Assembly: GCA_002840435.1 (NCBI GenBank)
Contig: PHAT01000005.1
Location: 36,460 to 100,459, forward strand
Reading direction: 5' to 3'
Source: Deltaproteobacteria bacterium HGW-Deltaproteobacteria-6
Lineage (GTDB): Bacteria; Desulfobacterota; Syntrophia; Syntrophales; Smithellaceae
DNA length: 64,000 bases
The position numbers and the translations under genes are program-made. Shown here in pieces: positions 7,840 to 36,192 of the stretch. Numbering within the stretch: position 1 is the stretch's first letter; each line of letters opens with the position of its first letter. Below the pieces are notes generated by a model that was given only the letters and a program-made list of their open reading frames with translations, did not search any database and had not been told where the DNA came from.

Positions 7840-7848
7840 ATCCGGCAA

Positions 7849-8742: not shown

Positions 8743-8794
8743 AGCGTATGTCGTGGTTTGCGATTCACGAGATGCAAGATACGGGGAAAAATCC

Positions 8795-9847: not shown

Positions 9848-9853
9848 GCCTTT

Positions 9854-19801: not shown

Positions 19802-20820
19802 TGTGTTTTCAGCATCTGATACGTGGGTTCAAATAAAGACAGCAGTAATTCAACTGTTTCTTTTTCCCAACTGATAATCTGATTGTCCAGTGCAAATGGG
19901 TAGGACAGAGCTCCGATGGGCAGATCGACATACTTGGCCGCAGCATGGTCAAAATTGGTGATGATATAGGGAATTTCACTGAAAGTTGCCAGGGCGGAAA
20001 AGCCGCTGGATGTGCCCATAAAAAGATCCGTCTGATGAAACAGCGTAATTTCATGAGCGAGATTATATCCCATCGCTCTGGGAATCAACACATTTTCAAA
20101 TGTATATAATTCCTTTTCCCATTCCGCATACCCACCGAAAGCAAGGAACAACACATCCGGATATTTTTTACGGACCACTTTAAAGAAACGATACCATTCG
20201 TGCAATGGCGAATCCCGGCGGATAACCCCTGACGCCTGCCCTGCAAAGCCTAAATCGGCATAATTTGCCCGCTGCCTGATGTTTACAGAGACCAGAAAGC
20301 GTCCGCTGCAGTGCTCCTTCAGAAAATCATCCATGCTGTTTTCATAACCCCGCGGTGTTTTTAATCGGGGAATATAATGATTTTCCTGAAAGAATTTATC
20401 GATTTTTTTATGGGAATAGTAATCCAGCTGCTCCATGGTATGGATTAACAGGTTTGGCCACGTGTGAAACCCGCTTAAAACTTTCTTCAACAAATAATAG
20501 TCAAAAGCGTGTCTGTTGGCAAACAGCTTCAACGACATCTCCAGCGGATTGCATAAAAAAGCCGGGAATAAATTGGATATATAGTCCCTGTAGTTTTCCC
20601 GGTTAATGTGTGGTTGAAGACGACCGGAGGGCCTTCGCGGATCAACAACCAGGCTGTGAATCACAGTATCGATGCCTTTATCCAGCGCTCCAATCGCCAC
20701 ATTAACCTGCCAGGTAAACGCATCTCCCAGCGCGTAAGGCGCATAAGAAAAATCGTAAATACCGATGAAGGGATACTTTATTTCTTTCTTTTGAATTTGA
20801 AAAGACATTATTTCTTTCAT
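19798..20820 (-). CDS. Uncharacterised protein, paralog 3 of 3; putative GT-B (GT9-like) glycosyltransferase
   Basis: 340 aa with GIYDFSYAPYALGD, IPRLKTPR and LFMGTSSGFSALATFSEIPYIITNFD blocks. 4-nt overlap with the downstream gene. Confidence 0.55.
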   Translation of the reverse strand: MKEIMSFQIQKKEIKYPFIGIYDFSYAPYALGDAFTWQVNVAIGALDKGIDTVIHSLVVDPRRPSGRLQPHINRENYRDYISNLFPAFLCNPLEMSLKLFANRHAFDYYLLKKVLSGFHTWPNLLIHTMEQLDYYSHKKIDKFFQENHYIPRLKTPRGYENSMDDFLKEHCSGRFLVSVNIRQRANYADLGFAGQASGVIRRDSPLHEWYRFFKVVRKKYPDVLFLAFGGYAEWEKELYTFENVLIPRAMGYNLAHEITLFHQTDLFMGTSSGFSALATFSEIPYIITNFDHAAAKYVDLPIGALSYPFALDNQIISWEKETVELLLSLFEPTYQMLKTQ

Positions 20821-20836: not shown

Positions 20837-21943
20837 TTAGTCCGGCCTTCCTTTTATTAAGAAATCTCGAACTCGCAGCACCTCTTGATTTTTCATTAAC
20901 TCGGAATATAGTTTTTTCTGCCTCCATTTCCGTTCAAGATACGATTTAATCCTTCTGTAGGCGTAAGACGGGTAATGCTGCTTTGTCAGCACAAGATCCG
21001 CACCCGAAGCAAACACATAATTATTGTCAACTTCTTTCAACAAGTCATTTATTAAGACGGGGGCAATATATTTTCGATACCCCTTCTTAATATTATTCAT
21101 GGCATCTTCCAGACTGATGCCGTCTTGAGCAGATATAATTGAAGCGACCGCATTGTTGAAGTTCACAAAATCATCCGACCATGATTCCAAAAGGACTCTG
21201 TCAAAACGATCCATTAACGAGTCCTCCCTGGTGCAGTTTGTATTAAAATGGTGCTGCCGGAGAAGATACGGGACGGAAAGTGTTTTGATTTTTCCTGATG
21301 CAACAGCCATCAGGCTCGTTAAGAGTTCAGCAATCGTTACATCTTTGGGATATAAATCACGTAACGCATCAAAATAGCATCTAACATCTTCAATGTGATG
21401 GACGTCGTAGTAGGTTGTTGAATACGCTGCGAAGTGCGATATAATACGGTCTGAAGCCTTATCCTCCTCAAGGGAAACCGCTGATTGCACGAGGCAGCGA
21501 TCAATGCTTCCATAAGCTCCGTTTGCATCCGGCGCAATGGTAAACGCATACACTTGTCCTTTGCATGTTTTATAGTCATTGTTTTCCGAAAGAAATTTCA
21601 CCGATTGGCGGAGACCATCAACGATATAAAAATCATCATTATCTGCAAAAACAACAAAGGGTGTTTTTACTCTGGATAAAACATCCACTTTCTTTTCATG
21701 ATAAATTAAATAGGTCGCATCATAAGGGTAACGGATATACTCATAATCCAGATGAGGATAGGTATTCGCGCTGGATAAGACTTCGGTAATTTTCTTGTCT
21801 GATCCACCGTCCGCGATGAGTATCTTAAAGGGAAAGCGGCTTTCGTTGGCGTAAGCCATCCACCGATAGGTAAATGGCACACGGTCTTTGAGCGTGAGAA
21901 TGACCGTTAAATTCTTATCAAATTCGTTTTGCATAGACCTCAT
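20837..21943 (-). CDS. GT-A (GT2-like) glycosyltransferase domain protein, paralog A
   Basis: 368 aa with LTVILTLKDRVPF...ILIADGG and a DxD-like FADNDDF. About 60% identical by eye to the 24332-25465 protein. Confidence 0.6.
   Translation of the reverse strand: MRSMQNEFDKNLTVILTLKDRVPFTYRWMAYANESRFPFKILIADGGSDKKITEVLSSANTYPHLDYEYIRYPYDATYLIYHEKKVDVLSRVKTPFVVFADNDDFYIVDGLRQSVKFLSENNDYKTCKGQVYAFTIAPDANGAYGSIDRCLVQSAVSLEEDKASDRIISHFAAYSTTYYDVHHIEDVRCYFDALRDLYPKDVTIAELLTSLMAVASGKIKTLSVPYLLRQHHFNTNCTREDSLMDRFDRVLLESWSDDFVNFNNAVASIISAQDGISLEDAMNNIKKGYRKYIAPVLINDLLKEVDNNYVFASGADLVLTKQHYPSYAYRRIKSYLERKWRQKKLYSELMKNQEVLRVRDFLIKGRPD
21800..21943. repeat. Near-identical 5' coding segment shared with 25320-25465 (dispersed direct repeat about 3.5 kb apart)
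   Basis: By-eye alignment gives roughly 85% nt identity, including an identical 24-mer ggcacacggtctttgagcgtgaga at 21876-21899 and 25398-25421. Confidence 0.8.
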
Positions 21944-22036: not shown

Positions 22037-24277
22037 TCAAATCAGCAACTTTCTATTCAGATAATTATGGGGCTTCCATAAACTGATATTCAAGCGTGGA
22101 TGTTTATGTCTTTCCAGAATGATCTTCTGCTGGCGAAGAATGAATTTATTGATGAATAATCGCATCAACAGGACATTGGAAAGCCTGCTGTTCGAGATAT
22201 TAATCATAACATCCCAATCATTGGAGAATATCGCGCTCACCGGAAGAATATCAACCCCCGACGGATTCTTTTTTCCGATCTGTTTATCATCAACAGCCCC
22301 GGCAATGATACATCCATCTATGGTTCTTAATTTTTCCATAATGTAATGAAGACAGCGACCCGCACCCATCAACAGAATCTTTTTATTTTGCAGTAATTTT
22401 TCAGGAAACACATCCGGCATTAACGGCAACAATCTTTCTTTATTGACCAGATTTTCAGTCGCCATCAAATCGCAGGCATCCTGGAAATACATATCTGTTA
22501 TCAGAACAAGGTCTGGTTTCAGCTCCTTGATTTCGCCCAGCCTATATTGAGGATAGAAAAAGAATTTTTTCGATTCTGGCGTGCCGCCTGAACCAACAAA
22601 GCCGATGATTTTATTCATATCAAACCCCGGAAGGCCGAACGCCAGGATGCTTTTGGCGTTCATGCCCGTACCCAGAATCAGGACCTTCTCCACCCCCTGC
22701 AATGCCTCACTCAACCTGTCAACTGATTCCGGTGATCCAATCCTGGAAAATGAAACATTGAAACAGTGTGGACAAACCAATCTTATGACAAGGCCGTCCC
22801 ATCTCCAGTTCCCGAATTCCTTGCCGATTTCGCTGCTTTTTTTACAGATGGGACACCGGGCAGAATACTGATAACCCCCTTCGGCAACCTCCAGTTGGAG
22901 ATCACATTTGAATCTGCCGGAAAGGAATCCCAGATAGCGCCGGACTTCTTTCATAATCCCGTTGTGAAGGTCTTCCGTACCGGGAAAATCACTGACATTT
23001 AAATAATTTTTTTCGGCAATGCGTTCATCGTCCAATCCAATGTATTGCAGCTTTGTTAAATACTCATACTCGTCTTCGATAATTTTTTTTTCTCTGGCAT
23101 GTCTGTAAATCAATGTGCCGGGGTAGGCAATTGTCAGATTAATATTGGAAAACATCTCTTCCTCGATCAGCAGATTGAATGTTTCCCGCAAATCTTCCCC
23201 ACCTTCTCCCTCGCTCCCAACCATCACATTGCATTCCTGCGGCATTTTAGTTGCTTTGAGTTCATGAAGGAATGTCTGAATAGTTTTTCTGTTAACGCCC
23301 TTATTCATCCGTTTGAGGATTTTATCGGAGCCGCTTTCCGCGCCGATGGACACACCGATGCAACCTGATTCTTTCATCACCTTGAGGATAGCCGGATCCA
23401 CATCCAGTCTGAGACTGCAAAACCATTCCTTCGGCGGTCCTTCCGCTGAATACCGCCGACAGAATTCGACAATTTCCTCATGGTGGGCAAACAGCACTTC
23501 CGTCATGACGCCGAAAACCGAAAAATCATATGTTTCACTCATCCTCCACATCTCCTTGAGGATGTTATTGATTTTTCGCGATCTGAATTGTCCCATTGTG
23601 GGCCGGCAAAAAGAACAATGCCCCGTACACCCGCGTCCGGTCATAACAGGAAAAAACGTCCGTCCGGGAAAGCTGTGATGGCAGCTGTGCAGATATTTCT
23701 CCATGTCCAAATGATGCCAGGCAGGTTCCCGATCATCTGAATCCAGATTCAGCCTTAAAGATGCTTTCCTGTGGATTGTTCCGGATTTTCTATCCCGAAA
23801 CATGACGCCCGGAAGGTCATCGAAAAATTTTTCGCTTCGTTCCAGACGGCGTAATAAACCGGCAAAGGCTGTCTCCGCTTCTCCCAGCACGGCATAGTCT
23901 ATCCCGAAACGGTCGAATAGAATATCCGGATTAACGCACTGGGTAATGTTACCGCCCAGAATAAACGGCATGCTTTCTCCGTATTTTTTTATACGCCCGG
24001 CTAACTCAAGAAAGAAAGGTGCGTCACCCACAAGACCGCCTGTTGCCACGGCCAGATAGTCGTTCTGAGCGAAAAGTTTTTTATAATTTACCTTTTGAAA
24101 AAAAGAATCTATAAAATCAAAAGGAATACCATTTCTATCCATATCCGCCATGACATAAGCCAGACCGATCGGGAAAAACCCGTAATTGGGTTTTATCAGC
24201 AGGATTTTGCGGGAAAACGGATTTTGTTTTTCAACCATCTCCGATTTATACTTTTCTTTCTGATGAATATCTATCAA
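22037..24277 (-). CDS. B12-binding domain / radical SAM protein with a C-terminal Zn-ribbon and Rossmann-like extension
   Basis: 746 aa: an N-terminal cobalamin-domain-like ILLIKPNYGFFPIGLAYV, a CxxxCxxC cluster (GCTGHCSFC), then CPICKK...CPHC and two G-rich modules (KVLILGTGMNAKS, KKILLMGAGRCLHY). Confidence 0.75.
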   Translation of the reverse strand: MIDIHQKEKYKSEMVEKQNPFSRKILLIKPNYGFFPIGLAYVMADMDRNGIPFDFIDSFFQKVNYKKLFAQNDYLAVATGGLVGDAPFFLELAGRIKKYGESMPFILGGNITQCVNPDILFDRFGIDYAVLGEAETAFAGLLRRLERSEKFFDDLPGVMFRDRKSGTIHRKASLRLNLDSDDREPAWHHLDMEKYLHSCHHSFPGRTFFPVMTGRGCTGHCSFCRPTMGQFRSRKINNILKEMWRMSETYDFSVFGVMTEVLFAHHEEIVEFCRRYSAEGPPKEWFCSLRLDVDPAILKVMKESGCIGVSIGAESGSDKILKRMNKGVNRKTIQTFLHELKATKMPQECNVMVGSEGEGGEDLRETFNLLIEEEMFSNINLTIAYPGTLIYRHAREKKIIEDEYEYLTKLQYIGLDDERIAEKNYLNVSDFPGTEDLHNGIMKEVRRYLGFLSGRFKCDLQLEVAEGGYQYSARCPICKKSSEIGKEFGNWRWDGLVIRLVCPHCFNVSFSRIGSPESVDRLSEALQGVEKVLILGTGMNAKSILAFGLPGFDMNKIIGFVGSGGTPESKKFFFYPQYRLGEIKELKPDLVLITDMYFQDACDLMATENLVNKERLLPLMPDVFPEKLLQNKKILLMGAGRCLHYIMEKLRTIDGCIIAGAVDDKQIGKKNPSGVDILPVSAIFSNDWDVMINISNSRLSNVLLMRLFINKFILRQQKIILERHKHPRLNISLWKPHNYLNRKLLI

Positions 24278-24331: not shown

Positions 24332-25465
24332 TCATGTGTTTTTAAAACCGCTCAATAGAAATTCCCTGATACGGGATACTTCTTGATCATGATTCAAATC
24401 CGGACAGAAATCATTTTGATTTAAAACCTGCCTGGCATCCGGATTTATTTTCGTGCCTTTTCCCGCACCCGTTAATTTAGCTTTAAGTGCTTCATAACTT
24501 TTGAATAGATATAATTTTATAGATGTATTGGAAGGCGGCGGCTGTTGTATGGTGTTTTTCAAGATGCTATTTAAAATAACCGGATCAATAAATCTGCGAT
24601 AGCCTTTTTTTATATGTTGAATCGCACTTTCAACACTTATATTGTCCCTGATCCCGCAGATTGCGGCAACTGCCTTTACAAATGCTGTAAAATCATCCGA
24701 CCAGGATTCTAAAAGCATTCTGTCAAAACGATCAACCAATATGTCCTCTTTAGCGCAATTTGTATTCATGTGATACTGCCTGAGAAGATACGGATGAGCT
24801 ATTTTCTTTACTTTTCCTGATGCAACCGTCATAAAGCTTGTTAATAGTTCGGCGATGGTCACATCTTTTATATCAAAGTCATGTAACGCTTTAAAATTTT
24901 CTCTGATGTCTTCAATCCGATGGACATCATAATATGTAGTTGAGTACTTTTCAAAGTGTCTGGAAATGCGTTCTAACGCCCTCTCTTCTTCAAGCGATGC
25001 AGCCTCGTATAATGAAAACTGGATTGCATTTCCGTAAAGAGCATTTAAGTCAGGACTCAAAATAAAACTATACGTCTCTCCTCTGCAGGTACAATAATCA
25101 CGGTTTGCCGTCAAAAACTTCATAGCTTCACGAAGACCGTCATAAATGAGAAAATCGTCATTATCCGTAAATACGGCGAACTGCGTTTTAACTTTTGTCA
25201 AAACATCAGCTTTTTTTGCATGATATATGGAATATGTTTCGTCATAAGGATATCGAATATAATCATAATCGAGGTTGGGGTAGTTGCTTCTATTTGATAA
25301 TATTTCAGTTATCTGCTTATCCAGGCCGCCGTCCGCTATGAGAATTTTAAAAGGAAAGCGGCTTTCATTGGCGTAGGCCATCCATCTATATGTAAACGGC
25401 ACACGGTCTTTGAGCGTGAGAACGACTGTCAGATTCTTATCCAATTCTTTTTGTGTTGAGCTCAT
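24332..25465 (-). CDS. GT-A (GT2-like) glycosyltransferase domain protein, paralog B
   Basis: 377 aa with LTVVLTLKDRVPFTYRWMAYANESRFPFKILIADGG and FTDNDDF. The C-terminal ~70 aa are unrelated to paralog A. Confidence 0.6.
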   Translation of the reverse strand: MSSTQKELDKNLTVVLTLKDRVPFTYRWMAYANESRFPFKILIADGGLDKQITEILSNRSNYPNLDYDYIRYPYDETYSIYHAKKADVLTKVKTQFAVFTDNDDFLIYDGLREAMKFLTANRDYCTCRGETYSFILSPDLNALYGNAIQFSLYEAASLEEERALERISRHFEKYSTTYYDVHRIEDIRENFKALHDFDIKDVTIAELLTSFMTVASGKVKKIAHPYLLRQYHMNTNCAKEDILVDRFDRMLLESWSDDFTAFVKAVAAICGIRDNISVESAIQHIKKGYRRFIDPVILNSILKNTIQQPPPSNTSIKLYLFKSYEALKAKLTGAGKGTKINPDARQVLNQNDFCPDLNHDQEVSRIREFLLSGFKNT

Positions 25466-25534: not shown

Positions 25535-26452
25535 TCAACCCGGTAAAGGATAGCCGTACTTTTTCAGATCAAGTCCATACTCATGCATCAATTTCGCGTT
25601 GTCTTCCTGATAGAGTTCAATAACCCGCTTCCTCCAGGCATCCGACATAAAACCTTCGGCTGGCGGGCCTGACTGAACATAATTTCTGGCCATATCCTTC
25701 AGGGCGGCGCCGGGAATGTATTGTATGATATCACGGCCTCCAAAATGGTCACAGAATCGATGATACTGCCATTGACGCATGGTGTTCCTCGTCCTTTCAC
25801 GCCGCGATGAAACAAGCCCAATGGCCTCATCGGCATCTATGCGCAAAATCGCGCAAAGATCCTTGATGAAGCCGGGCGGGTTAGAAATAAAATCTTCATA
25901 GAACAAGATTTTAACTTTCTTTCTGTCAAAGTATTGTGTAAAGCCACAAAGGATTCTATGATAAAAATAACTGCCGATGAGACTGTATTTGATAAAATTT
26001 GTGGAATGATCCATCCATTCATCAAACGAAACAAATCGTTTCCAGTACCGGCGCGGAACATTCCTCAGGTAGGCGCCATGGTTGGCATACATCGACGGAA
26101 CAGCCGTCAGCTGATTTCTTACAACCAGTAATATTTCAGCGTCCGGAAGATAGCCGGAAAGACGTTTTGCGCACAATGCAGGAATATGGCTGGTCATGAT
26201 ATCTTCGCTGGAAAACAGCAGCGTCTTATCCCCGGCCGTTTCTTTCTTGCGCTTGAAAAGATCTTCAGCTTCGCGGGCTTTGAAATAGATATCATCATCC
26301 GAAATAAGAGAAAGGATGGTATCCTGATGTTCCGCATAATCATCACCATCCTCACCGATATAGACGAGATCTTTACTTTTTGAAAACAAGCAACGCTGAA
26401 GCGTTGTTGAACCGGTTTTATTGGCGCCGATATGAATGACGTTTTTTGACAT
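25535..26452 (-). CDS. PAPS-dependent sulfotransferase
   Basis: 305 aa with a 5'-PSB loop IHIGANKTGSTTL and a 3'-PB-like LLVVRNQLTAVPSMY. cysD/cysNC lie in the same transcription unit. Confidence 0.7.
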   Translation of the reverse strand: MSKNVIHIGANKTGSTTLQRCLFSKSKDLVYIGEDGDDYAEHQDTILSLISDDDIYFKAREAEDLFKRKKETAGDKTLLFSSEDIMTSHIPALCAKRLSGYLPDAEILLVVRNQLTAVPSMYANHGAYLRNVPRRYWKRFVSFDEWMDHSTNFIKYSLIGSYFYHRILCGFTQYFDRKKVKILFYEDFISNPPGFIKDLCAILRIDADEAIGLVSSRRERTRNTMRQWQYHRFCDHFGGRDIIQYIPGAALKDMARNYVQSGPPAEGFMSDAWRKRVIELYQEDNAKLMHEYGLDLKKYGYPLPG

Positions 26453-26453
26453 G

Positions 26454-27242
26454 TTAATCCCTGAGCGTTGGCGATCCGAAGATCAAGTTACATTTCCGTT
26501 CCAAGCGATATTCCGATGGAAAATTTTGCATGGGCAGAAGTTGAATCTTTCCGAGGAAGGAAAATTCCAGGAGTGATTTGTAGATAAGGTGATAACCCCG
26601 TGATTGTACATATTCCGTCACTTCACTGATATTCCAGAACCAGACGGGAATCTTCTCTCCGTAATAATTCTGAAAGGATACAAACGTTTTAATATCTCCG
26701 GCATTCAGCGCATTGAGCATCAGGACATCAGGTTGATAATTCAGGAGTTGCTTCAAGAGCCCACGCCAGTCACGGATATAATGAAGTGCTGCTGCTATAT
26801 GAACAATGTGAAACCTGCTTTCGCCAACAGGTAAAGAATCATGATAGTAAATATTATTGAAGTTCGCATATATTTCTCGACCCTTTTCACAAATTCTTTT
26901 CCCTTCCACAATGTGATACTCTATTTTTTGCGGGTCGGGCAACGAATGAATACAGGCCATAAAACTGTTTCCACTGCCGCCGCCAAAATCAAGAATACGC
27001 AGGGGTGAATCGGTTTTGTAAGTCGCGAGTAATGCCGCAATCGGAGGCAGGGGATACTCATGAACCAGGCTCAATTCAGAAGGCGCGGTTTTATTGGCGC
27101 CACCAATAGCGCCGGGTGACGATAAAGCTTTAAACACTGACGTGACCCAACGCTCGGAATCCCAAACGTGATCAGATTCCGATTCCGGAAACGCATCGAC
27201 TATTCCATCCCAGACGCAGGGACTTTCCTGATCAGTGCTCAT
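26454..27242 (-). CDS. Class I SAM-dependent methyltransferase
   Basis: Motif I ILDFGGGSGNSF. ATG at 27242 (MSTDQES) overlaps the upstream stop by 11 nt. The track start at 27314 is too long. Confidence 0.6.
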   Translation of the reverse strand: MSTDQESPCVWDGIVDAFPESESDHVWDSERWVTSVFKALSSPGAIGGANKTAPSELSLVHEYPLPPIAALLATYKTDSPLRILDFGGGSGNSFMACIHSLPDPQKIEYHIVEGKRICEKGREIYANFNNIYYHDSLPVGESRFHIVHIAAALHYIRDWRGLLKQLLNYQPDVLMLNALNAGDIKTFVSFQNYYGEKIPVWFWNISEVTEYVQSRGYHLIYKSLLEFSFLGKIQLLPMQNFPSEYRLERKCNLIFGSPTLRD

Positions 27243-28173
27243 GATTGCAATTTCCAAGCAATGCAATTGTTTCTTCGATATCTTTCGCAATGGATCCGGA
27301 ATAGCGAAAACCATGATTCATGAAGCGCTGACTGGAAACCTCATAAGAAAGCTGATTCATGATTTCATTATCAACGTACTTAATCGATACATGTGGAATA
27401 TGCGCGGCAATATTCTGAACAATGTCGTTGACCGTTAGATTATCGGTTAAAACATTATAGATCTGATTATCATACAATCCGCTTTGAATGATAAACTGAT
27501 ACGCCTTCATGGCGTCCTGCAGGGACAGATACGGACGTTTCTGATGCAAGGCGGTTGTCCAGACCGTCAGGGGCTGTCTCATAACGGCCTGCCAGCAGAA
27601 TTTGTTGACAGCCGTGTGAAATCTCATGCCCGGAGAAATTCCGCATATCGTGCCGAAACGACAGACAATAAATTTCAAGCCTTTGGACCGGCCCAGTTCG
27701 AAGAGATAGTCTTCCTCTTTAAGTTTTGTTTCGGCATAAGGACTCTGGGGCTTTAAATCTTCGAGCGTACAGCATTCGTCGACCAGGTTTTTCTGCGTCC
27801 CGTAAACACTGGTGGAGGACATATGAATCATCGGGCAGCCGAGACCGGCGCAGGCTTCAGCAACCCTGGCTGTCGCGTTAAAGTTATTCGTTTCGACCTG
27901 CTCTTTATTGTTGAAACTTCCGGCGGCATCGGTAATAGCCGCCAGATGGATAACCACATCCGCCCCATCGATCACGGAAAACAGATCGGCATTTAACACA
28001 TTCATTTCCAAAAACCGGTAACGGCTTTCCGCGGGAAGGTTGAATAATGAGGCATAGCGATTGGTCAGCATATTATCGATCATCACAACTTCCAGCCCCC
28101 GAAAAGCGGCGGGCAGCTCCCTGATCAATCGGGATCCGATATGTCCTAATGCTCCGGTTACAATGATTTTCAT
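27232..28173 (-). CDS. NAD-dependent sugar epimerase/reductase (SDR)
   Basis: 313 aa with MKIIVTGALGHIGSRLI and YAETK motifs. Confidence 0.7.
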   Translation of the reverse strand: MKIIVTGALGHIGSRLIRELPAAFRGLEVVMIDNMLTNRYASLFNLPAESRYRFLEMNVLNADLFSVIDGADVVIHLAAITDAAGSFNNKEQVETNNFNATARVAEACAGLGCPMIHMSSTSVYGTQKNLVDECCTLEDLKPQSPYAETKLKEEDYLFELGRSKGLKFIVCRFGTICGISPGMRFHTAVNKFCWQAVMRQPLTVWTTALHQKRPYLSLQDAMKAYQFIIQSGLYDNQIYNVLTDNLTVNDIVQNIAAHIPHVSIKYVDNEIMNQLSYEVSSQRFMNHGFRYSGSIAKDIEETIALLGNCNHEH

Positions 28174-28178
28174 TTTAT

Positions 28179-29156
28179 TTACGCCAAATAATGTTTGAGA
28201 TGTTTTTTGTAATATTCCCTGGTTACGACAAGCCCGGCATCCAAATCAAATTGGGGCGCCCAATTAAGATACTCTTTAATTTTTTTGTTGCTGATCACGG
28301 CATTGCCCACCTCCGTCGATTTTCTGTCCTTGGGCCATTCGATATATTTTATGCTTCCACTGCCCATGCACTTCATCGTTTTTTCCGCAATCTCCGCAAC
28401 GGTGTAATGATGATCTCCCACGGCAAAAAGCGCCTGCCCCTGTGTTTTTTCCGAAAGAGCGGCGGCAATCAATGCATTGACGGCATCATCGACAAAAATC
28501 ACATTTCTCAGTTGGTTCCCTTCGCCGAAAATATCAATATTCTTACCCTGCATGGCAAGTCCCACGAAATAATTGTTAAAAGTAAAACCGGCGCTGTGGA
28601 TACTGGCTCTCGGACCATACACGTTTGACAAGCGGACGACCGCCGCGCGCAGCATGTAAGCATTCGCATAGATAAGAACATATTTCTCCGACACGGATTT
28701 ATTGGCAGAGTATATATCGGTGGGGAATTCGGGGTGTTTTTCATCTGCGGGCTCGTATTGCAATTTACCCAACTGCGTACTTGTTCCGAGTTGAATAAAT
28801 TTCACATCGGCGTTGAATCGACGAACGGCTTCCAATAAATTAATGACGCCGCGCACATTGACGTCCATATCAATCCAGGGTTCCCGCATGGAAAAGGGAT
28901 GAGATGTCGAGGCCGCGCAGTTAAAAATAATATCTTTCTTAACCACTCTTTCTACGATTTGGTCATAGTCCAAGATATCATGATAGCAGAGCTCCACGGA
29001 ATCTTTTATATCATGGATATTATAAAGCTTACCGCCCGAGCGTGTATCCAGGCAATCATAAATTGTGACATCCGCCCCCATAGCCAGGCACTGATGTGCG
29101 AGGTTGCTGCCGATAAAGCCCAATCCGCCGGTGATTAAAACCTTTTTTCCTTTCAT
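28179..29156 (-). CDS. NAD-dependent sugar epimerase/dehydratase (SDR)
   Basis: MKGKKVLITGGLGFIGSNL and YSANK motifs. ATG at 29156 is preceded by GAAGGAG. The track start at 29213 overlaps the upstream gene. Confidence 0.75.
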   Translation of the reverse strand: MKGKKVLITGGLGFIGSNLAHQCLAMGADVTIYDCLDTRSGGKLYNIHDIKDSVELCYHDILDYDQIVERVVKKDIIFNCAASTSHPFSMREPWIDMDVNVRGVINLLEAVRRFNADVKFIQLGTSTQLGKLQYEPADEKHPEFPTDIYSANKSVSEKYVLIYANAYMLRAAVVRLSNVYGPRASIHSAGFTFNNYFVGLAMQGKNIDIFGEGNQLRNVIFVDDAVNALIAAALSEKTQGQALFAVGDHHYTVAEIAEKTMKCMGSGSIKYIEWPKDRKSTEVGNAVISNKKIKEYLNWAPQFDLDAGLVVTREYYKKHLKHYLA

Positions 29157-29184
29157 AAAAACTCCTTCAATTTCCCGGAACAGA

Positions 29185-29820
29185 TTATGACGATTTTTTC
29201 CTGGCTCTGACAAATATCATGAGGTTCCGATCACCTTTCCAGTTAAAACGGGACAATTCATCCACTTCAAATCCGATTCTATGCAAAAGCGCACGAATTT
29301 TATTTTCGGTATAACAATTCTTATGGAACTGCCCTTCGCTGTTCTGGGGTCCGAATATACTGGCGGTCAAGTATCCCCATCGACTTTCCGTTGAATATGA
29401 ATATTGACCAAACCAGTGCTGAGCGGCAATTGCCTCCGGATCATTGCGGAAAAAATCCTTCCATTCGTCCTTTGCCTGCAACCAAAGCCGGACGGTTTCT
29501 TCGAAATCCGGGACCGAAAATTCGAAACAGCCGCCGGGAGACAATACGCGCTTTACTTCCTGGAAAATTTTACTTTCCTCCAGAAAAGACAGATGCTCCA
29601 GCAGAGAATCGGCCCGAATCAGCGCAACGCTGCCGTCGGGAAAAGGGAGATTGAAGATGTCATACTGGTATACTTCAACACCCTCCGGAAATACAGTGCC
29701 CGGGTAACGCACTTTCATTTGTTCTATTGTATCCAAATCAACATTGATATATCCCGGCAGGGGACGGCCACCGCAGCCCAGATTGATTCTAATATCGCTT
29801 TTCGGTATTTTATTTTCCAT
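29185..29820 (-). CDS. Class I SAM-dependent methyltransferase (Methyltransf_11-like)
   Basis: 211 aa with INLGCGGRPLPGYINVD motif I and LSPGGCFEFSVP post-I motifs. Confidence 0.65.
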   Translation of the reverse strand: MENKIPKSDIRINLGCGGRPLPGYINVDLDTIEQMKVRYPGTVFPEGVEVYQYDIFNLPFPDGSVALIRADSLLEHLSFLEESKIFQEVKRVLSPGGCFEFSVPDFEETVRLWLQAKDEWKDFFRNDPEAIAAQHWFGQYSYSTESRWGYLTASIFGPQNSEGQFHKNCYTENKIRALLHRIGFEVDELSRFNWKGDRNLMIFVRARKKSS

Positions 29821-29887
29821 TGCAATTCCACCTTCTCTGAGAAATGATCGTGTTATCAGGCTGTCCGCCTCTGGACATAGATGAATC

Positions 29888-31009
29888 TTACTTTCTTTTC
29901 AACACCTTTTTAATTCCGTCGCAAACTCTGACAATCTGGTCTTCCGTGAGATTTCCGGCGCAGGGAAGATTGACGCCCCTTGGCGAAATATCATAACAGT
30001 TGACATTCCGCTTTTCATATTTTTCCTGAAACCCGGGATAAGCCGGCATGGAGGATAATGGATAGAAAAAAGGCCGGCAGGGTATTTCCAGTTCAGCCAT
30101 TTTCCTGATCACATCATTTTTATCCATCTTATAGGATTTGCCGATAATAATCGTCGGCATCCAGGCTCCATGGATTCCTTCCACCGGATCCGGATTGATT
30201 TCAATATCGTCGACATCCCGGAGGTTCTCCCTGTAAAGCCTGAGCTGGTTTCTCTTATTGATCAGCAGTTCCTCAATTCTTTGAAACTGCGCGTAGCCCA
30301 GAGAGGCTGACAGATTGTTCGGCATGTATTTATACGTCACCTCGTAATTATAATACATGCCGACCTCGGTTCTTCTGCCATGATCGCGGAGAAATTTGCA
30401 CCGCTCGAATAATTTGTCATCATCAATAAGCAGCATTCCCCCCTCGCCGGTCGTGATGGTCTTGGTCCGGTGAAAGCTGAACGTGGAGGCAATTCCGAAT
30501 TTTCCAGCCTTAACGCCTTTATATGTCGAGCCAAGGGCCTCAGCGGCATCTTCAACCAGGGGCAGGCCATGTTCACTGGCAATCTGAAGCAATTCATCCA
30601 TCAGCGGCATATTGCCGAATAATCCCACCGCCATGATCGCTTTGGTTTTCGGCGTAATGCTTTTTCTCACCGACTCGGGATCCAAGCACCAGTGCACGGG
30701 ATCGATGTCACAAAAGACCGGGATGCCTCTCAGATAGGTAATTCCCGCGCCGGTCGCAATCCAGGTGCAATCGGGAAGAATAACTTCGTCCCCATCGGAA
30801 ATCCCCATTCCAGTCAATAACAGGTGAATGGCCGTCGTGCAGCTGGGCGTCATCAATCCGTATTTTCGATTATGATATGCCGCAAATTCCTTTTCGAATT
30901 TCTCACAATAGTCAAAAGGGTGTTCATACCAGCCGTTGCGCATCATGTCTTCCACGACCTTTATTTCGTGCTCCGTAATCCAGGGTCCCGCAAAAAATAT
31001 TTTATCCAT
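29888..31009 (-). CDS. DegT/DnrJ/EryC1/StrS-family PLP-dependent sugar aminotransferase
   Basis: 373 aa with fold-type I aminotransferase features (SCTTAIHL, FSFHRTKTITTGEGG with the PLP lysine). Confidence 0.8.
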   Translation of the reverse strand: MDKIFFAGPWITEHEIKVVEDMMRNGWYEHPFDYCEKFEKEFAAYHNRKYGLMTPSCTTAIHLLLTGMGISDGDEVILPDCTWIATGAGITYLRGIPVFCDIDPVHWCLDPESVRKSITPKTKAIMAVGLFGNMPLMDELLQIASEHGLPLVEDAAEALGSTYKGVKAGKFGIASTFSFHRTKTITTGEGGMLLIDDDKLFERCKFLRDHGRRTEVGMYYNYEVTYKYMPNNLSASLGYAQFQRIEELLINKRNQLRLYRENLRDVDDIEINPDPVEGIHGAWMPTIIIGKSYKMDKNDVIRKMAELEIPCRPFFYPLSSMPAYPGFQEKYEKRNVNCYDISPRGVNLPCAGNLTEDQIVRVCDGIKKVLKRK

Positions 31010-31047
31010 GGCCTTATCCTTTAATCCTTATCCTTTAGAAAAACACC

Positions 31048-31524
31048 CTACCGTATTCTAATGCCTTCCGTCCAATCATAGTTGATTTCCGGATCATCAT
31101 GCGGAATTCTAACCTCATCGCCCGTATCGTATGTACCGGATGTCACATAGATGATATGCATGGGTCCGTTGATACACCGGTATCCATGTAAAATGCCCGG
31201 CGGAAATCCGTATGCCTGCGGCACCTGATAATCACCGGAAAGAAACTCCATTTTTTGACGATAGGTGGGAGACTCTTTCCGCATGTCGTACAATACAACC
31301 TTAATCAGACCCGACAGCACGTAATTCCACTGTGTTTGAATTTTATGGGCATGCCACGCTTTAACAGTCCCCGCATAAACGAGCGAATGGCTCACCTGAC
31401 CGATAATCGTGGAATCTTCACCGCAGCCGCAAATAATTTCCCTGAAAAATCCCCTGTCATCGGTGTGTGTTTCAATCTTTTTAAAGACGACACCCGCTAT
31501 AGCGGCATCAATATGATTCATCAT
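31048..31524 (-). CDS. RmlC-like cupin (NDP-4-keto-sugar epimerase or ketoisomerase)
   Basis: 158 aa with HTDDRGFFRE and KAWHAHK motifs resembling the dTDP-4-dehydrorhamnose 3,5-epimerase fold. It sits between two DegT genes. Confidence 0.6.
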   Translation of the reverse strand: MMNHIDAAIAGVVFKKIETHTDDRGFFREIICGCGEDSTIIGQVSHSLVYAGTVKAWHAHKIQTQWNYVLSGLIKVVLYDMRKESPTYRQKMEFLSGDYQVPQAYGFPPGILHGYRCINGPMHIIYVTSGTYDTGDEVRIPHDDPEINYDWTEGIRIR

Positions 31525-31552
31525 CTCACGACAGCCTCCTGTTCCGTCCTCT

Positions 31553-32689
31553 TCATCTTTTAAAGAAACGTTTTACCGCACCGATAACCACAGATATTTC
31601 CTCCATACTCAATTCAGGGTACATGGGTAAGGACAGAATTTCGGTTGCCGCCCTTTCGGTGCGGGAAAGATCGTACCGCTGCAGATCGGACGATTGGTTG
31701 AATGCCGGCTGCAAATGCACGGGAGTCGGATAATGGATGGCGGCCATAATGCCCTCTGCCTTCAAATACGACAGCAACTGGTTCCGTTCATGACTTTTCA
31801 CGACATACAGATGATAGACGTGACCATCCCCGGGACGTCGGGCAGGGACCATACAATCCGTTTCGGCCAGCCCGCTGTTATAGGCATCCGCGATTTGAAG
31901 ACGTTTGCCATTATCTTCATCCAGATGCCGCAGCTTGACGCGCAGTATCGCCGCCTGAAGCTCATCCAGCCTGCTGTTCCATCCAAAAGACTTACTGACG
32001 TAACGCTCTTTCCACCCGTATTGCCTTAATTGCCGGACCTTTTCGGCCAGCTCGACATTATCGGTCACGACCATTCCGCCATCACCGATGGCCCCCAGAT
32101 TTTTTGTGGGATAGAAACTGAAACACCCCATATCGCCATAGGCGCCGCACCTTTTATACGATCCGCGGCCGCCGCCATGCGCTTGCATGTTCCCGCAAAA
32201 CGCACCATGCGCCTGCGCGCAGTCTTCGATGACCCGCAGATGATGTTTTTGAGCAACAGCAAGAATGTCTTTCATCAGGGCGGCCTGCCCGTAAATATGG
32301 ACCGGAACCATTGCTTTTGTTTTTGCCGTTACGGCCTGCTCAATTTTCCCCGGATCGATGGTGAAGTACTCATTTTCGATATCGACGAAGACAGGCTTTG
32401 CTCCGGCCAGGATAATAGCCGTTATCGTCGCCACCGCCGTGTGCGAAACAGTTATCACTTCATCCCCCGGACCGATGCCGCACGCGGTCAATGCGAGATG
32501 CAGGGCTTCCGTACCACTTCCGACGCCAATGGCGCAGGAGACACCGGTAAAAGACGCAAATTCCTGCTCAAAAGCGCTTACTTCATCTCCGAGAATATAA
32601 TATCCCCCATCAAGCACAGCGGCAATGGCTGAGTCGATTTCCTCTTTATAAGCAACATACTGGGCTTTGGGGTTAGCGCATAAAATCAT
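31553..32689 (-). CDS. DegT/DnrJ/EryC1/StrS-family sugar aminotransferase
   Basis: 378 aa with GSGTEALHLAL and FSFYPTKNLGAIGDGG (PLP lysine) motifs. Confidence 0.8.
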   Translation of the reverse strand: MILCANPKAQYVAYKEEIDSAIAAVLDGGYYILGDEVSAFEQEFASFTGVSCAIGVGSGTEALHLALTACGIGPGDEVITVSHTAVATITAIILAGAKPVFVDIENEYFTIDPGKIEQAVTAKTKAMVPVHIYGQAALMKDILAVAQKHHLRVIEDCAQAHGAFCGNMQAHGGGRGSYKRCGAYGDMGCFSFYPTKNLGAIGDGGMVVTDNVELAEKVRQLRQYGWKERYVSKSFGWNSRLDELQAAILRVKLRHLDEDNGKRLQIADAYNSGLAETDCMVPARRPGDGHVYHLYVVKSHERNQLLSYLKAEGIMAAIHYPTPVHLQPAFNQSSDLQRYDLSRTERAATEILSLPMYPELSMEEISVVIGAVKRFFKR

Positions 32690-32719
32690 TGTAAAGGTCC
32701 AATCGTCCGTTAAAGTGAA

Positions 32720-33946
32720 TTACTCTCTGATTTTAATCTCCGGAACATAAACGATCCATTTGCCGCCGGAAGCCATAAAGTCACTCTCTTTCGCCATAAT
32801 CTCCTTTTCATGATTGTAGGCAAACAGCAGCGCATAATCCGGATAATGCTCTTTGAAATATTGATGGGACAGAACCGGTATATGGGCTCCCGGACTGAAT
32901 TTCCCCTGTTTGATCGGTGTCGTGTCGCAGATATAGTCAATATGTTTGTCGGTGATGCCGCAGAAGTTAATGATGGTCGTGCTCTTGGATGTCGCCGCAT
33001 ATCCGACGATGCTTTTCCCCTTTCCCCGGATGTCATTCAGAATCGTCATCAGGTCCGTGCGAAACCGATCGCAGTTGATTTTGAATTGATCGTACGTTTC
33101 ACGCCGGTTGAGGCCCAGATGCTCCTCTTTTGCCAGTTGGCGGGACAGGCGGGGAGATATTGTTCTCTTTCCCTTCCCCGCAATATAATACCGCATGGAC
33201 CCCCCGTGAGTGATTTGCGGTTCGACGTCAAATATTTCCATATCATGCTTTTTCAGGAGATATTGGATTGACGAAACGCAAAACAGGAAAACGTGTTCAT
33301 CATAAATTTGATCATAGGTTGTATTTTCGATAACATCCCCGAGATAAGGGTCTTCAAACACAACGACGCCCTCCGGCTTCAAGAGCTGTTTCATCCCCGC
33401 GATAATGGAATGCAGATAGGGGATATGGCACATGACGTTGGCGGCCAGGATGGCATCGGCAGGTCCATATTCAGTCAATATTTTTTTTGCAAGATCTTCG
33501 TCAAAGAAAGCTGAAATTGTATTAATGCCGTTTTCCCGGGCAACCAAGGCCACGTTTGCGGAAGGCTCAATGCCCAGATGGCGGATGCCGGCTTTCGCGA
33601 AATTCTGGAGCATGATGCCGTCATTGCTTCCGATTTCCACAACAAAGGGATCTGACGATTGGATGTAATCCCGCCGGACATTTTCCGCAAACATCCGGAA
33701 ATGATTAATCATGCCTTGAGAGGTCTGCGAAAAAAATGCGTAATTTTCATTGAACATGATTTCGCGTTCAGGTTGATTCAATAATTGAAACATGTTGCAG
33801 TTTGAACATACCCCTGCTTCCATCTCATAAAAATACTCATCAGAAAATTGGCTTTGCGTCAAAAAGCCATTGGCAATCGGCATTTTGCCAAACGACATAA
33901 ACGGTTCATAGGGTTCACCACATATTCTGCAATGGTTAACGGCCAC
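32720..33946 (-). CDS. NDP-hexose C-methyltransferase-like protein (Zn-ribbon + SAM MTase + C-terminal sugar-nucleotide domain; TylC3 type)
   Basis: CRICG...CSNC Zn domain, VVEIGSNDG motif I, and a C-terminal IVGYAATSKSTT module. GTG at 33946 is preceded by GGAGG immediately after the wzt stop. The track start at 34036 lies inside wzt. Confidence 0.7.
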   Translation of the reverse strand: MAVNHCRICGEPYEPFMSFGKMPIANGFLTQSQFSDEYFYEMEAGVCSNCNMFQLLNQPEREIMFNENYAFFSQTSQGMINHFRMFAENVRRDYIQSSDPFVVEIGSNDGIMLQNFAKAGIRHLGIEPSANVALVARENGINTISAFFDEDLAKKILTEYGPADAILAANVMCHIPYLHSIIAGMKQLLKPEGVVVFEDPYLGDVIENTTYDQIYDEHVFLFCVSSIQYLLKKHDMEIFDVEPQITHGGSMRYYIAGKGKRTISPRLSRQLAKEEHLGLNRRETYDQFKINCDRFRTDLMTILNDIRGKGKSIVGYAATSKSTTIINFCGITDKHIDYICDTTPIKQGKFSPGAHIPVLSHQYFKEHYPDYALLFAYNHEKEIMAKESDFMASGGKWIVYVPEIKIRE

Positions 33947-33957
33947 GGTTTGCCTCC

Positions 33958-35316
33958 TTAATCTATAAAAGAATTTTTTAATGGATAGGTCTGGTTTGTC
34001 CACTCCAATAATGGGCGGACAGCGGCAGGCGGCCACTCCTGCACGTAATTCCTGCGAACACCATCCGGATCCATCGCGTCCAGAACATTAAACGAAACAC
34101 AGGCCTTATCGAGAAAATAAACTTCCAGTTCATCCGTAACCGCCACCTGAACGATAACCTGTCCATCATTCATCAGGTCCGGCGGAATCCGGCAGGTTGA
34201 AACATAAAATCCGGGCGAGCACTTTCTCTGCTCCGGAGGCCGGTCTATGGAATCATTTCGTGAATGAAATATTATTTCCCCCCGATGGTTAAAAAAACAA
34301 CAAGATGTGTTGATGCTGTTCATGTCCCGAAGGACTGCATATTTGATTTCAATGGCAATGGGATCACGAACATCATAATTTGTGCACGTCCTGCCCTCCC
34401 GATCGACAACACGCACGGAATTGACTCTCACATAATCATTTCCCGGTGCCTTTTTGATATCCGGCCATATTTTTTCTCCAGCGGCGTGGAAGTCTTCCGA
34501 CATATAGCGTGAAACCACCTGAGTGGCAGGTCCGTCTGATTTGATCTGTCCGTCACTGAGCAGAATGACCCTCCCGCAAAGGCTTTGAATGGCCCCCATA
34601 TTGTGACTCACGAACAGGATGGTCCTCCCGCCCTCTTCCGAGATATCCTTCATTTTCCCCAGACATTTTTTTTGAAACTCAGAATCCCCGACAGCCAGCA
34701 CCTCATCAATAACAAGAATTTCCGGTTCCAGATGTGCGGCAACGGCAAAAGCAAGGCGGACATACATCCCGCTGGAATATCTCTTAACCGGCGTATCGAT
34801 GAACATCTCTACCCCGGAGAAATCAACGATTTCATCAAATTTCGACGCAATCTCCGCCTTCGTCATACCCAGAATGGCGCCATTGAGATAGATATTTTCT
34901 CTGCCCGTCAACTCCGGATGAAAACCTGTCCCGACTTCCAGCAGCGAGGCAACCCGTCCTTTGAGTTTAACAACGCCTCTCGTCGGCGATGTAATCCTGG
35001 ATATTATTTTCAGGAGAGTCGACTTGCCGGCGCCGTTACGCCCGATGATGCCAATCCGCTCTCCATAGTTCACCGAGAAATTAATGTCCTTCAGCGCTAA
35101 AAAGGTGCCGTCATCATAGGTGCCGGAGCCATCAACATGATTGGCCTGATACCGGCCTGTCGAATTCAGATTGATTTTCAGATTGGGATCATCTTTTCCT
35201 CTGATTCGGGCCCACCATGACTGGATATCGCGAAAAAGATATTGATGCCCGATAATACCCAGACGATATTGTTTTGATAAATTTTCAACCTTAAGAACAA
35301 TGTTGGACATAACCAA
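33958..35316 (-). CDS. wzt: O-antigen/polysaccharide ABC exporter ATP-binding protein Wzt with a C-terminal carbohydrate-binding domain
   Basis: 452 aa with Walker A GRNGAGKST, signature YSSGMYVRL and Walker B ILVIDEVL, plus a ~170-aa beta-rich C-terminal extension. Confidence 0.8.
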   Translation of the reverse strand: MVMSNIVLKVENLSKQYRLGIIGHQYLFRDIQSWWARIRGKDDPNLKINLNSTGRYQANHVDGSGTYDDGTFLALKDINFSVNYGERIGIIGRNGAGKSTLLKIISRITSPTRGVVKLKGRVASLLEVGTGFHPELTGRENIYLNGAILGMTKAEIASKFDEIVDFSGVEMFIDTPVKRYSSGMYVRLAFAVAAHLEPEILVIDEVLAVGDSEFQKKCLGKMKDISEEGGRTILFVSHNMGAIQSLCGRVILLSDGQIKSDGPATQVVSRYMSEDFHAAGEKIWPDIKKAPGNDYVRVNSVRVVDREGRTCTNYDVRDPIAIEIKYAVLRDMNSINTSCCFFNHRGEIIFHSRNDSIDRPPEQRKCSPGFYVSTCRIPPDLMNDGQVIVQVAVTDELEVYFLDKACVSFNVLDAMDPDGVRRNYVQEWPPAAVRPLLEWTNQTYPLKNSFID

Positions 35317-35328
35317 ACCCTGGGCACA

Positions 35329-36192
35329 TCAGATGGTATCTGAAAATGTCTTCTCGACCCTGTTAAATAATAATAACCCGACGAAAAAAATAACGACCGT
35401 CATCATGATGCTGATCATCCAATGGCCGGGATGAACTATTCCATTACCTAAAAAAGCGAACCTGAACATATCAATTATCGGCGCCATCGGATTAAGCATG
35501 TATAAAAAAAGATAGCGATCCGGAACGCTGGAAACAGGGTAAACAATAGGCGAGGCATACATCCAAAGCGAGACGACAAAACCGACGGCAAAATTCAAAT
35601 CCCGGTATTTCGTTGTTAATGACGATACCAGAATACCGATTCCCAGGCCGAGAAAAGCCATCTGGATAATCAACAACGGAACGATTATGAGCCACTTATT
35701 GGGATAGATGGGAGCCCCCTTCGCGATGAAGAAGAAATAAAAGCAAAGAAACAATATAAACTGAATGAAAAACTGGATCATATTGATCAGTGCAACTGAT
35801 AAAGGCACGGTTAATCTGGGGAAATAGACTTTGCCGAAAATATTCGCATTCGTAATAAAAGTACTGGATGTGTTTTTCAGGCAGTCTGCAAAATAATTCC
35901 AGGCAACAATTCCGGATAAGTAAAAAAGAAAAGGCGGAATCCCATCCGTTGGTATCTTTGCAACTTTGCCGAACACAACGGTAAAAACAATGGTCGTAAA
36001 AAGAGGCTGGATAACATACCATAAAGGCCCCAAAACCGTCTGCTTATAGAAAGCGCTGAAGTCCCTTTTTACAAAAAACAGCACCAGATCTCTGTAATTC
36101 CAGAGTTCCCTGAAATGAAGATCAAACCAGCCTGTCTTCGGTCTGATAATCTGATCCCATGTTTGATTTTCAATTTGGTTGGTCATCATCAT
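35329..36192 (-). CDS. wzm: ABC-2 type polysaccharide exporter permease Wzm
   Basis: 287 aa with about 6 TM segments and the ABC-2 N-terminal motif (LFFVKRDFSAFYKQTVLGPLWYVIQP). Directly upstream of wzt. Confidence 0.8.
   Translation of the reverse strand: MMMTNQIENQTWDQIIRPKTGWFDLHFRELWNYRDLVLFFVKRDFSAFYKQTVLGPLWYVIQPLFTTIVFTVVFGKVAKIPTDGIPPFLFYLSGIVAWNYFADCLKNTSSTFITNANIFGKVYFPRLTVPLSVALINMIQFFIQFILFLCFYFFFIAKGAPIYPNKWLIIVPLLIIQMAFLGLGIGILVSSLTTKYRDLNFAVGFVVSLWMYASPIVYPVSSVPDRYLFLYMLNPMAPIIDMFRFAFLGNGIVHPGHWMISIMMTVVIFFVGLLLFNRVEKTFSDTI

Follow-up and report, generated by a model that had tools for sequence, protein, structure and literature searches.

The DNA analysed here is a stretch of 64,000 nucleotides (the window) of contig PHAT01000005.1 from Deltaproteobacteria bacterium HGW-Deltaproteobacteria-6, and its subject is a gene on the minus strand at positions 22037..24277 that encodes a radical S-adenosylmethionine (SAM) protein of 746 amino acids. 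Residue numbers refer to this 746-residue form unless a 733-residue form is named. The initial annotation had described the product as a cobalamin (B12)-type radical-SAM enzyme fused to a zinc ribbon and two glycine-rich, Rossmann-like modules and lying inside an O-antigen locus. The analysis showed one conserved multi-domain enzyme, in which a class B radical-SAM unit is followed by a ribbon with four cysteines (Cys4), a Rossmann-like module (module 1) and a clade-specific second alpha/beta module (module 2). The parts of the gene are as follows.

22037..24277, minus strand: the radical-SAM gene as called from its open reading frame (ORF), with the stop codon at 22037-22039
23855..24208, minus strand: N-terminal B12-binding-type Rossmann domain, residues 24-141 (PF02310)
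23168..23641, minus strand: radical-SAM core, residues 213-370 (PF04055)
23606-23629, minus strand: cluster motif C217-x3-C221-x2-C224 (CxxxCxxC)
22895..23167, minus strand: conserved stretch that follows the core, residues ~371-461, belonging to the class B catalytic unit
22742..22894, minus strand: Cys4 ribbon, residues ~462-512, with the invariant cysteines C475, C478, C502 and C505
22403..22741, minus strand: module 1, residues ~513-625, a five-stranded alpha/beta module conserved family-wide
22133..22402, minus strand: module 2, residues ~626-715, an alpha/beta module confined to the closest relatives (P0002-P0008)
22040..22132, minus strand: C-terminal tail, residues ~716-746, of low predicted confidence (predicted local distance difference test, pLDDT, <50)

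The ORF is a real gene, exactly as first described. It is read from a TTG at 24277 in the NCBI record (746 residues, P0394) and from an ATG at 24238 by the JGI, Logan and ENA callers (733 residues, P0001). Neither codon has a well-spaced Shine–Dalgarno sequence, a GGAG directly abutting the ATG, and as homologues start about 10 residues ahead of a conserved ‘KxLLIKP’ both start codons are compatible with the family; the choice between them is immaterial. The short motifs quoted in the initial annotation were all recovered, namely GCTGHCSFC (C217, C221 and C224), CPIC (475-478), CPHC (502-505) and the glycine-rich strings KVLILGTG (from 531) and KKILLMGAG (from 632) in the radical-SAM protein, and IVGYAATSKSTTIINFCG in the TylC3-type ORF at 32720-33946. 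It is extremely improbable that the 746-residue ORF is an artefact in which two genes have been joined by frameshift, mis-assembly or read-through. Four contigs that were assembled independently (from Logan, JGI and two ENA samples) carry the gene without a nucleotide difference, which excludes a frameshift or mis-assembly join; the same architecture recurs across about 86 representative clusters and is carried by about 22 species genomes from several phyla, conservation in the alignment runs unbroken across the junction between the catalytic unit and the C-terminal region, and no frameshifted continuation of the C-terminal tail was found in the other reading frames. As no evidence in its support was found, the two-gene join was rejected, and with the order of parts conserved in about 70 homologues the fusion is regarded as genuine.

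The proposed class B architecture was confirmed by Pfam, in which both catalytic domains exceed their cut-offs: the B12-binding model (PF02310) scores 36.9 bits against a cut-off of 32.1 over residues 24-141, and Radical_SAM (PF04055) scores 60.7 bits against 29.5 over residues 213-370. The CxxxCxxC motif lies inside the PF04055 domain, as in the radical-SAM superfamily, and the B12-binding Rossmann domain precedes the radical-SAM core, which is the domain order of class B. The three cluster cysteines (C204, C208 and C211 in the 733-residue form) are invariant across 60 sequences, and after the core Y372, G374, T375, N414 and R433/R434 are kept across the family. NCBIfam models for B12 radical-SAM enzymes span both catalytic domains, to about residue 430. 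The closest are PhpK (94.1 bits, cut-off 600), ApyD (86 bits) and HpnJ (82 bits), followed by the ladderane model (79 bits), BchE (78 bits) and QCMT (74 bits), all far below their cut-offs, and the AprD4 model gives 54.8 bits against a cut-off of 500. Because all the equivalog scores are so far below cut-off, the type of reaction was not assigned by homology. When the family profile was compared with solved structures the matches were AprD4 (6FD2, E = 2.9e-28, radical-SAM part only), QCMT (9CCB, E = 2e-26, residues 91-375, part of the B12 domain included), OxsB (E = 1.4e-12), TsrM (E = 5.8e-12), TokK (E = 5.6e-7) and CysS (E = 9.1e-7); AprD4 (6fd2) was also the top solved structure when the single sequence was used as the query (1.5e-12). 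The AprD4 match is restricted to residues ~170-430, the N-terminal domain falling outside it. According to a 2026 review, 9CCB is a B12-dependent glutamine C-methyltransferase that acts on an sp3 carbon, while AprD4 has a Rossmann-like B12-type domain yet binds no cobalamin (PMC12931638). Because AprD4 lacks cobalamin and no sequence motif that decides cobalamin binding was identified, methylation is the likeliest chemistry of the window protein and not an established one.

These matches also bear on the explanation that the protein is not a methylase and carries out some other radical chemistry on a sugar, with or without cobalamin, such as a dehydration or deoxygenation like that of AprD4, an epimerization, or a rearrangement of the kind catalysed by OxsB or HpnJ. 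The best solved structure is, with either query, that of AprD4, whose B12-like domain is empty (PMC12931638), but the part of the window protein that it matches is confined to the radical-SAM region, and QCMT, a true cobalamin-dependent C-methylase, matches nearly as well over a longer stretch. HpnJ, BchE and OxsB, which are not methylases, are among the matches, and many class I methyltransferases are already present in the locus. On the other hand, the AprD4 model of NCBIfam scores well below PhpK and the other cobalamin-dependent families (74-86 bits), which align across both domains, and the B12-binding model of Pfam exceeds its cut-off. Taking both sides together, we regard a chemistry other than methylation as unlikely.

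Beyond the class B catalytic unit the protein has about 290 extra C-terminal residues. All four cysteines of the ribbon are invariant in alignments of 41 and of 60 sequences, and 68 of the 72 best homologues have a CxxC...CxxC pair after the catalytic unit; the ribbon profile gave weak matches to the L33 and LysW zinc ribbons (E ~0.005-0.02). An AlphaFold2 model of residues 443-746 built from the 41-sequence alignment (mean pLDDT 77, predicted template modelling score (pTM) 0.72, core >90) has, in order, a ribbon of beta hairpins (pLDDT 80-90), alpha/beta module 1 (modelled at residues ~516-618), alpha/beta module 2 (~633-710) and a disordered tail, in agreement with the ribbon and two modules first recognized by eye. 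Module 1 predicted alone reached a pLDDT of 88 and a pTM of 0.83, and the strands and helices of module 2 have a pLDDT of ~80-92. Most of the family lacks module 2, for which no relative was detected beyond the closest homologues, and an hhalign probability of 11% between the two modules did not demonstrate an internal duplication. The tail of the window protein is about 35 residues shorter than in P0002-P0004. The extensions of other family members hold a different Rossmann module, a hydrophobic and basic tail, or large unrelated domains, and in P0009-P0038 (e.g. residues ~610-680 of P0011) module 2 is often replaced by a hydrophobic tail of about 70 residues with 22-26% Lys/Arg. Of the 56 tails of at least 40 residues, 12 reach a Kyte–Doolittle hydropathy of 1.6 and 28 reach 1.2, many being rich in lysine and arginine, which suggests that many family members may be associated with a membrane; the window protein, with a maximum hydropathy of 0.94, has no hydrophobic tail.

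The glycine-rich modules had been likened initially to the C-terminal domain of the TylC3-type C-methyltransferase encoded in the same locus. The neighbouring ORF (32720-34036, with the TylC3-type gene at 32720-33946) matches the PF08421, class I SAM-methyltransferase and PF08484 models, all of which are unmatched in the window protein; PF08484 gave no match to it even at E <= 10, and at the same threshold no Pfam model recognized residues 440-746. Alignment by hhalign with a 121-row alignment, made up of the window's TylC3-type protein and 120 EvaC/TylC3-type homologues, gave probabilities of 5.8% for the C-terminal region, 5.3% for module 1, 0.5% for module 2 and 34% for the ribbon (over 9 columns only), none of them significant; for module 1 the alignment had P = 0.007 over 70 columns, with strands and helices in equivalent register. 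When a local hidden Markov model of the C-terminal region was run against all window ORFs, the TylC3-type ORF scored E = 2.2, likewise without significance.

A broader relationship emerged when 1.84 billion representative proteins were searched exhaustively with a profile of the C-terminal region, 168 of them matching at E <= 1e-3. Nearly all of the 86 matches at E <= 1e-10 represent the same fusion, whole or in fragments. A Pfam scan of 32 further matches, mostly remote (E 1e-9 to 3e-4), found PF08484 (the C-terminal domain of C-methyltransferases) in 11, Peripla_BP_2 in five, PglD_N in four, C2185-like_N in three and CoA_binding in three, and where coordinates were checked the matched stretches coincide with the PF08484, PglD_N, C2185-like_N and CoA_binding domains. 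Every carrier of these matched domains is an enzyme that tailors glycans or teichoic acids (class I methyltransferases, TylF-type O-methyltransferases, GT2, a TagF-like/LicD protein, a radical-SAM/SPASM protein and other radical-SAM proteins). The second module of one family member, P0060, is a true PF08484 domain (25.4 bits, cut-off 23.5), and PF22674 (C2185-like_N) has a faint precomputed match to the window protein itself. In Foldseek the best match of module 1 was 2g6t_A (probability 1.00, root-mean-square deviation 2.9 A over 93 columns, E = 4.8e-3), an uncharacterised protein from Clostridium acetobutylicum that we take from its name to be CAC2185, the namesake of C2185-like_N; a literature search on CAC2185 found nothing relevant. 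The next matches of module 1 were Rex, COMT and the Rossmann-like domain of WbaP (8t53, probability 0.92-0.96), and with a larger model the TylC3-type KijD1 (5t6b_C) was matched at a probability of 0.92. The three-part model found generic Rossmann folds only, and neither it nor module 1 gave a Foldseek match at E <= 1e-3. Run against Protein Data Bank sequences, profiles of the C-terminal region and of module 1 matched neither TcaB9 nor KijD1, their matches being confined to generic zinc ribbons and, weakly, to class III periplasmic binding proteins; 4m7o_A, of this last class (iron, haem or B12), was matched by module 1 at E = 7.5e-4 over about 57 residues that include a ‘PDLVL’ strand, which is probably a shared local strand-helix-strand motif.

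From these comparisons we conclude that module 1 appears to be a member of a loose set of small, Rossmann-like domains that are accessory to sugar-tailoring enzymes and is not specifically of the TylC3 kind. The resemblance noticed initially therefore stands in the loose sense, on the remote profile matches, the PF08484 domain of P0060 and the match to 2G6T, and falls as a specific TylC3 relationship, on the absence of a Pfam match and the hhalign probabilities of about 5%; the Foldseek search likewise identified the same kind of small Rossmann-like domain with nothing at the stricter threshold. Two proteins of the non-B12 radical-SAM type carry such a domain as well: P0211 (533 residues) has Radical_SAM at 43-192, PF08484 at 240-329 and SPASM at 447-509, and P0241 (489 residues) bears a domain of the module-1-like or PF08484 kind. 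More than one radical-SAM class has thus recruited the accessory domain.

A different use of the C-terminal region would be as a redox or cofactor unit, in which a rubredoxin-like Fe(Cys)4 site and an NAD(P)- or flavodoxin-like, or BtuF-like, module would either supply the cluster or cob(II)alamin with electrons or handle cobalamin. The CPxC knuckles of the ribbon do resemble rubredoxin knuckles when read from the sequence, but rubredoxin is absent from the profile matches of the ribbon. Module 1 of the window protein contains G-x-G-x-x-A, and NAD-binding Rex and dehydrogenase domains are among the Foldseek matches, whereas across the family the glycine motif is not conserved, a single Gly being nearly invariant. 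The match to 4m7o_A and the five remote Peripla_BP_2 matches point towards a binding protein, yet no periplasmic binding protein is among the best 50 structural matches, the sequence match covers only ~30-57 residues, and the commonest relatives are accessory domains of sugar-tailoring enzymes. We therefore consider a redox or cofactor role improbable.

The roughly 70 homologues, of 600-840 residues, keep the same order of parts. A profile from a 12-sequence alignment was used to scan 185,579 species genomes, in about 22 of which the full fusion was found, so that together with the 168 matches among the 1.84 billion representatives the distribution is that of a rare protein. All carriers are metagenome-assembled genomes (MAGs) of anaerobic lineages (Omnitrophota, Desulfobacterota including Geobacter relatives, Sedimentisphaerales, Phycisphaerales, Nitrospinales and Lentisphaerae), and the family members are always in glycan or sugar loci. 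Their neighbours in other phyla include NeuB with a CMP-transferase, a heptose pathway, Wzm/Wzt or KpsC/S, class I methyltransferases and a split transketolase. Beside some members lie one to four further B12 radical-SAM genes (L006 1-5197; L087 746-5247; L088 264-1682 and 10395-11783; L090 9614-12118), mostly of standard size (462-509 residues) with one of 834 residues in L090; these four glycan loci, which hold several class I methyltransferases too, are unusually rich in radical methylase candidates. When the window neighbours were compared by BLAST with 22 family loci, only that of a Prolixibacteraceae MAG (L005) was syntenic. The sugar cassette next to the window gene is therefore not a family-wide partner of the radical-SAM gene. 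This cassette and the other features that adjoin the gene are as follows.

20837..21943, minus strand: TIGR04440-family glycosyltransferase, downstream flank (NCBIfam 174.7 bits)
24332..25465, minus strand: TIGR04440-family glycosyltransferase, upstream flank (NCBIfam 180.1 bits)
25535..33946, minus strand: sugar-tailoring cassette, co-conserved with the radical-SAM gene in Prolixibacteraceae (L005)
33958..36192, minus strand: Wzt (an ABC ATPase carrying a Wzt_C domain) and the Wzm permease, for ABC-transporter-dependent export

The two flanking glycosyltransferases are paralogues, 57% identical over their full length, which suggests that a tandem duplication may have taken place with the radical-SAM gene inserted between the copies. 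The cassette consists, in order, of a sulfotransferase, a TIGR04325 methyltransferase, two dehydratase/reductases of the short-chain dehydrogenase/reductase (SDR) type, a Methyltransf_11 protein, a DegT aminotransferase, an RmlC-like cupin, a second DegT aminotransferase and the TylC3/EvaC-type C-methyltransferase (32720-33946), and its predicted product is a heavily modified deoxy-amino sugar. The enzymes of the cassette include a 4,6-dehydratase (28179-29156). The Prolixibacteraceae locus has the same cassette together with the radical-SAM gene, at 54-79% identity, and in it the gene is flanked by the two SDR genes of the sugar pathway and not by glycosyltransferases. The O-antigen context proposed in the initial annotation is borne out. 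Lipid A and core genes occupy 11-11469 (BamA, LpxD, LpxA, LpxB, MsbA, LpxK, an LpxL late acyltransferase, GmhB and two heptosyltransferases), and the minus strand carries a single long glycan region from 11520 to at least 55670, which also holds a Bac_transf initiating enzyme, GT4, FnlABC-like genes, a TylF-type O-methyltransferase and further 4,6-dehydratases; the combination of Wzm/Wzt, Bac_transf, GT4, FnlABC-like and lipid A genes identifies an ABC-transporter-dependent O-antigen locus. The host is probably a Smithella-like, syntrophic strict anaerobe, which fits an oxygen-sensitive radical-SAM enzyme; an LpxA that is at least 90% identical carries the annotation Smithella sp.

Several other features of the region were recorded. 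A complete set of genes for sulfation supply (25535-26452 and 36258-42770) encodes a sulfate ABC transporter (binding protein, two permeases and ATPase), CysD, a bifunctional CysN/CysC and Sulfotransfer_1, and on this gene content the O-polysaccharide is predicted to be sulfated. A pair of genes for the N- and C-halves of a split transketolase-like protein lies at 51950-53712, and such a pair is also found beside the Lentisphaerae family member (L088 4378-6082), near a PF08421-containing methyltransferase; the split transketolase may take part in two-carbon branch or chain-extension sugar chemistry. At 17608-20820 there are three consecutive genes (384, 353 and 340 residues) without a Pfam match, the first with a weak similarity to TIGR04372 glycosyltransferases (E = 9e-5), and homologues of these genes (23-58% identity) lie beside family members in L005, L009, L013 and L023. 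An MBOAT/AlgX-like pair (45079-47782) represents alginate-type O-acetylation machinery and is present at the end of the Prolixibacteraceae locus as well.

The arrangement of the locus raises the matter of the substrate. The same radical and cobalamin chemistry could act on an undecaprenyl-linked or growing glycan, at a repeat-unit or chain-terminal residue, with the C-terminal modules docking to the assembly machinery or to the membrane, and the position of the window gene between two glycosyltransferase paralogues would suit this, as would the Wzt_C domain of Wzt, domains of this type being readers of a terminal modification. In Prolixibacteraceae, however, the gene sits between sugar-nucleotide SDR genes. 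The hydrophobic tails of other members, of which 12 of 56 reach 1.6 and 28 reach 1.2 with many of them basic, also favour a glycan substrate at the membrane, but the window protein lacks such a tail. Module-1-like domains are found on GT2, on TagF-like polymer-building enzymes and on WbaP, although most of the related accessory domains belong to enzymes whose substrates are nucleotide-activated. On this evidence a polymeric or lipid-linked substrate seems about as unlikely as a chemistry other than methylation.

The explanation that we favour, with a rough probability of 0.45, is that the protein catalyses cobalamin-dependent radical C-methylation of an unactivated carbon on a nucleotide-activated sugar and that the ribbon and module 1 hold the nucleotide. 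A reduced [4Fe-4S] cluster would cleave SAM to give the 5'-deoxyadenosyl radical, which would attack a nucleotide-activated sugar intermediate and remove a hydrogen from an unactivated sp3 carbon in it; methylcobalamin would then give its methyl group to the substrate radical, and a second SAM would re-methylate the cobalamin. The nucleotide handle of the substrate would be held by the ribbon and module 1, in analogy with the non-catalytic domains of TcaB9/TylC3 and PglD; in TcaB9 and PglD these domains help to bind the nucleotide portion of the NDP-sugar. The reaction would yield a sugar with a C-methyl branch or an extended chain, which is beyond the reach of polar methyltransferases such as the neighbouring TylC3-type enzyme. 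Fom3 reportedly methylates a CMP-linked substrate, and GenK is said to C-methylate the sugar of an aminoglycoside.

A number of results weigh against this explanation. No curated NCBIfam cut-off for a named B12 radical-SAM equivalog was reached (PhpK, ApyD, HpnJ, BchE, QCMT, HpnR, TsrM, BzaD and AprD4), the closest solved structure by profile is AprD4, a sugar diol-dehydratase without cobalamin, and no sequence motif marks cobalamin binding. On the side of the proposed nucleotide handle stand the absence of a PF08484 match, the hhalign probabilities for the C-terminal region and module 1, and the lack of a Foldseek match at E <= 1e-3. As to the locus, the window gene lies between glycosyltransferase paralogues and not among the NDP-sugar genes, and outside the Prolixibacteraceae locus the neighbours of family members are not orthologous to those in the window.

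In its catalytic part the window protein is like the class B methyltransferases (QCMT 9CCB, PhpK, TokK and CysS), with a B12-binding Rossmann domain and then a CxxxCxxC barrel, and GenK and Fom3 are class B enzymes able to C-methylate sugars and nucleotide-linked substrates. It differs from the class B methyltransferases in its ~290 additional residues (the Cys4 ribbon and one or two Rossmann-like modules) and in that its gene lies in a lipopolysaccharide (LPS) O-antigen locus and not in an antibiotic, RiPP (a peptide made by ribosomes and modified after translation) or cofactor pathway. With AprD4 (6FD2), the apramycin diol-dehydratase, which works on a sugar ring and possesses a B12-like domain at its N terminus, it shares the radical-SAM part; AprD4 differs in its length of 457 residues and in having neither ribbon nor Rossmann tail, and it binds no cobalamin. 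Like TylC3, EvaC, TcaB9 and KijD1 it pairs a methyl-transfer unit in a sugar pathway with a Cys4 metal site and a small accessory domain of the alpha/beta type, metal and methyl transfer being putative in the window protein. In contrast to those enzymes (PF08421, class I methyltransferase, PF08484), its catalytic domain is of the radical/B12 kind, its ribbon follows the catalytic unit, and the spacing of the ribbon is CxxC-x23-CxxC as against CxxC-x~36-CxxC in the TylC3 type. To CAC2185/C2185-like_N, PglD_N and CoA_binding it may be remotely related through the best structural match of module 1 and the coinciding profile stretches, the Foldseek E of 4.8e-3 being modest.

As the initial annotation had supposed, no previous description of the fusion was found: the open-access literature yielded no B12 radical-SAM enzyme with such a ribbon/Rossmann extension and none linked to an O-antigen, LPS or nucleotide-sugar pathway, and no model for the fusion was found in Pfam or NCBIfam. 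The word ‘sugar’ is absent from the 2026 review of B12 radical-SAM enzymes (PMC12931638). The catalytic class and the accessory fold are already known; what is new is their combination, its rarity and the LPS context. The spread of the PF08484/PglD_N/C2185-like module over class I, TylF, GT2, TagF-like and several radical-SAM catalytic domains suggests a portable handle that is reused by different enzymes. It is a more doubtful proposal, less likely than the favoured reaction itself, that the family represents an undescribed class of nucleotide-sugar C-alkylating enzymes, in which a TcaB9-like scaffold (Cys4 plus PF08484-type domain) would be joined to a cobalamin/radical-SAM core in place of the polar class I methyltransferase. 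If this were true, LPS-producing anaerobes could methylate or iteratively extend unactivated sugar carbons, for example by turning a 3-C-methyl group installed by TylC3 into an ethyl branch or by C-methylating C-6 of a 6-deoxyhexose, and would make branched or chain-extended sugars so far unrecorded in O-antigens. In biology, unactivated carbons are methylated mainly by cobalamin-dependent radical-SAM enzymes, and those characterized serve antibiotics, RiPPs, cofactors and lipids; a compact family whose accessory domains point to a nucleotide-linked substrate would give a testable entry to the sugar chemistry of the surface glycans of uncultured anaerobes.

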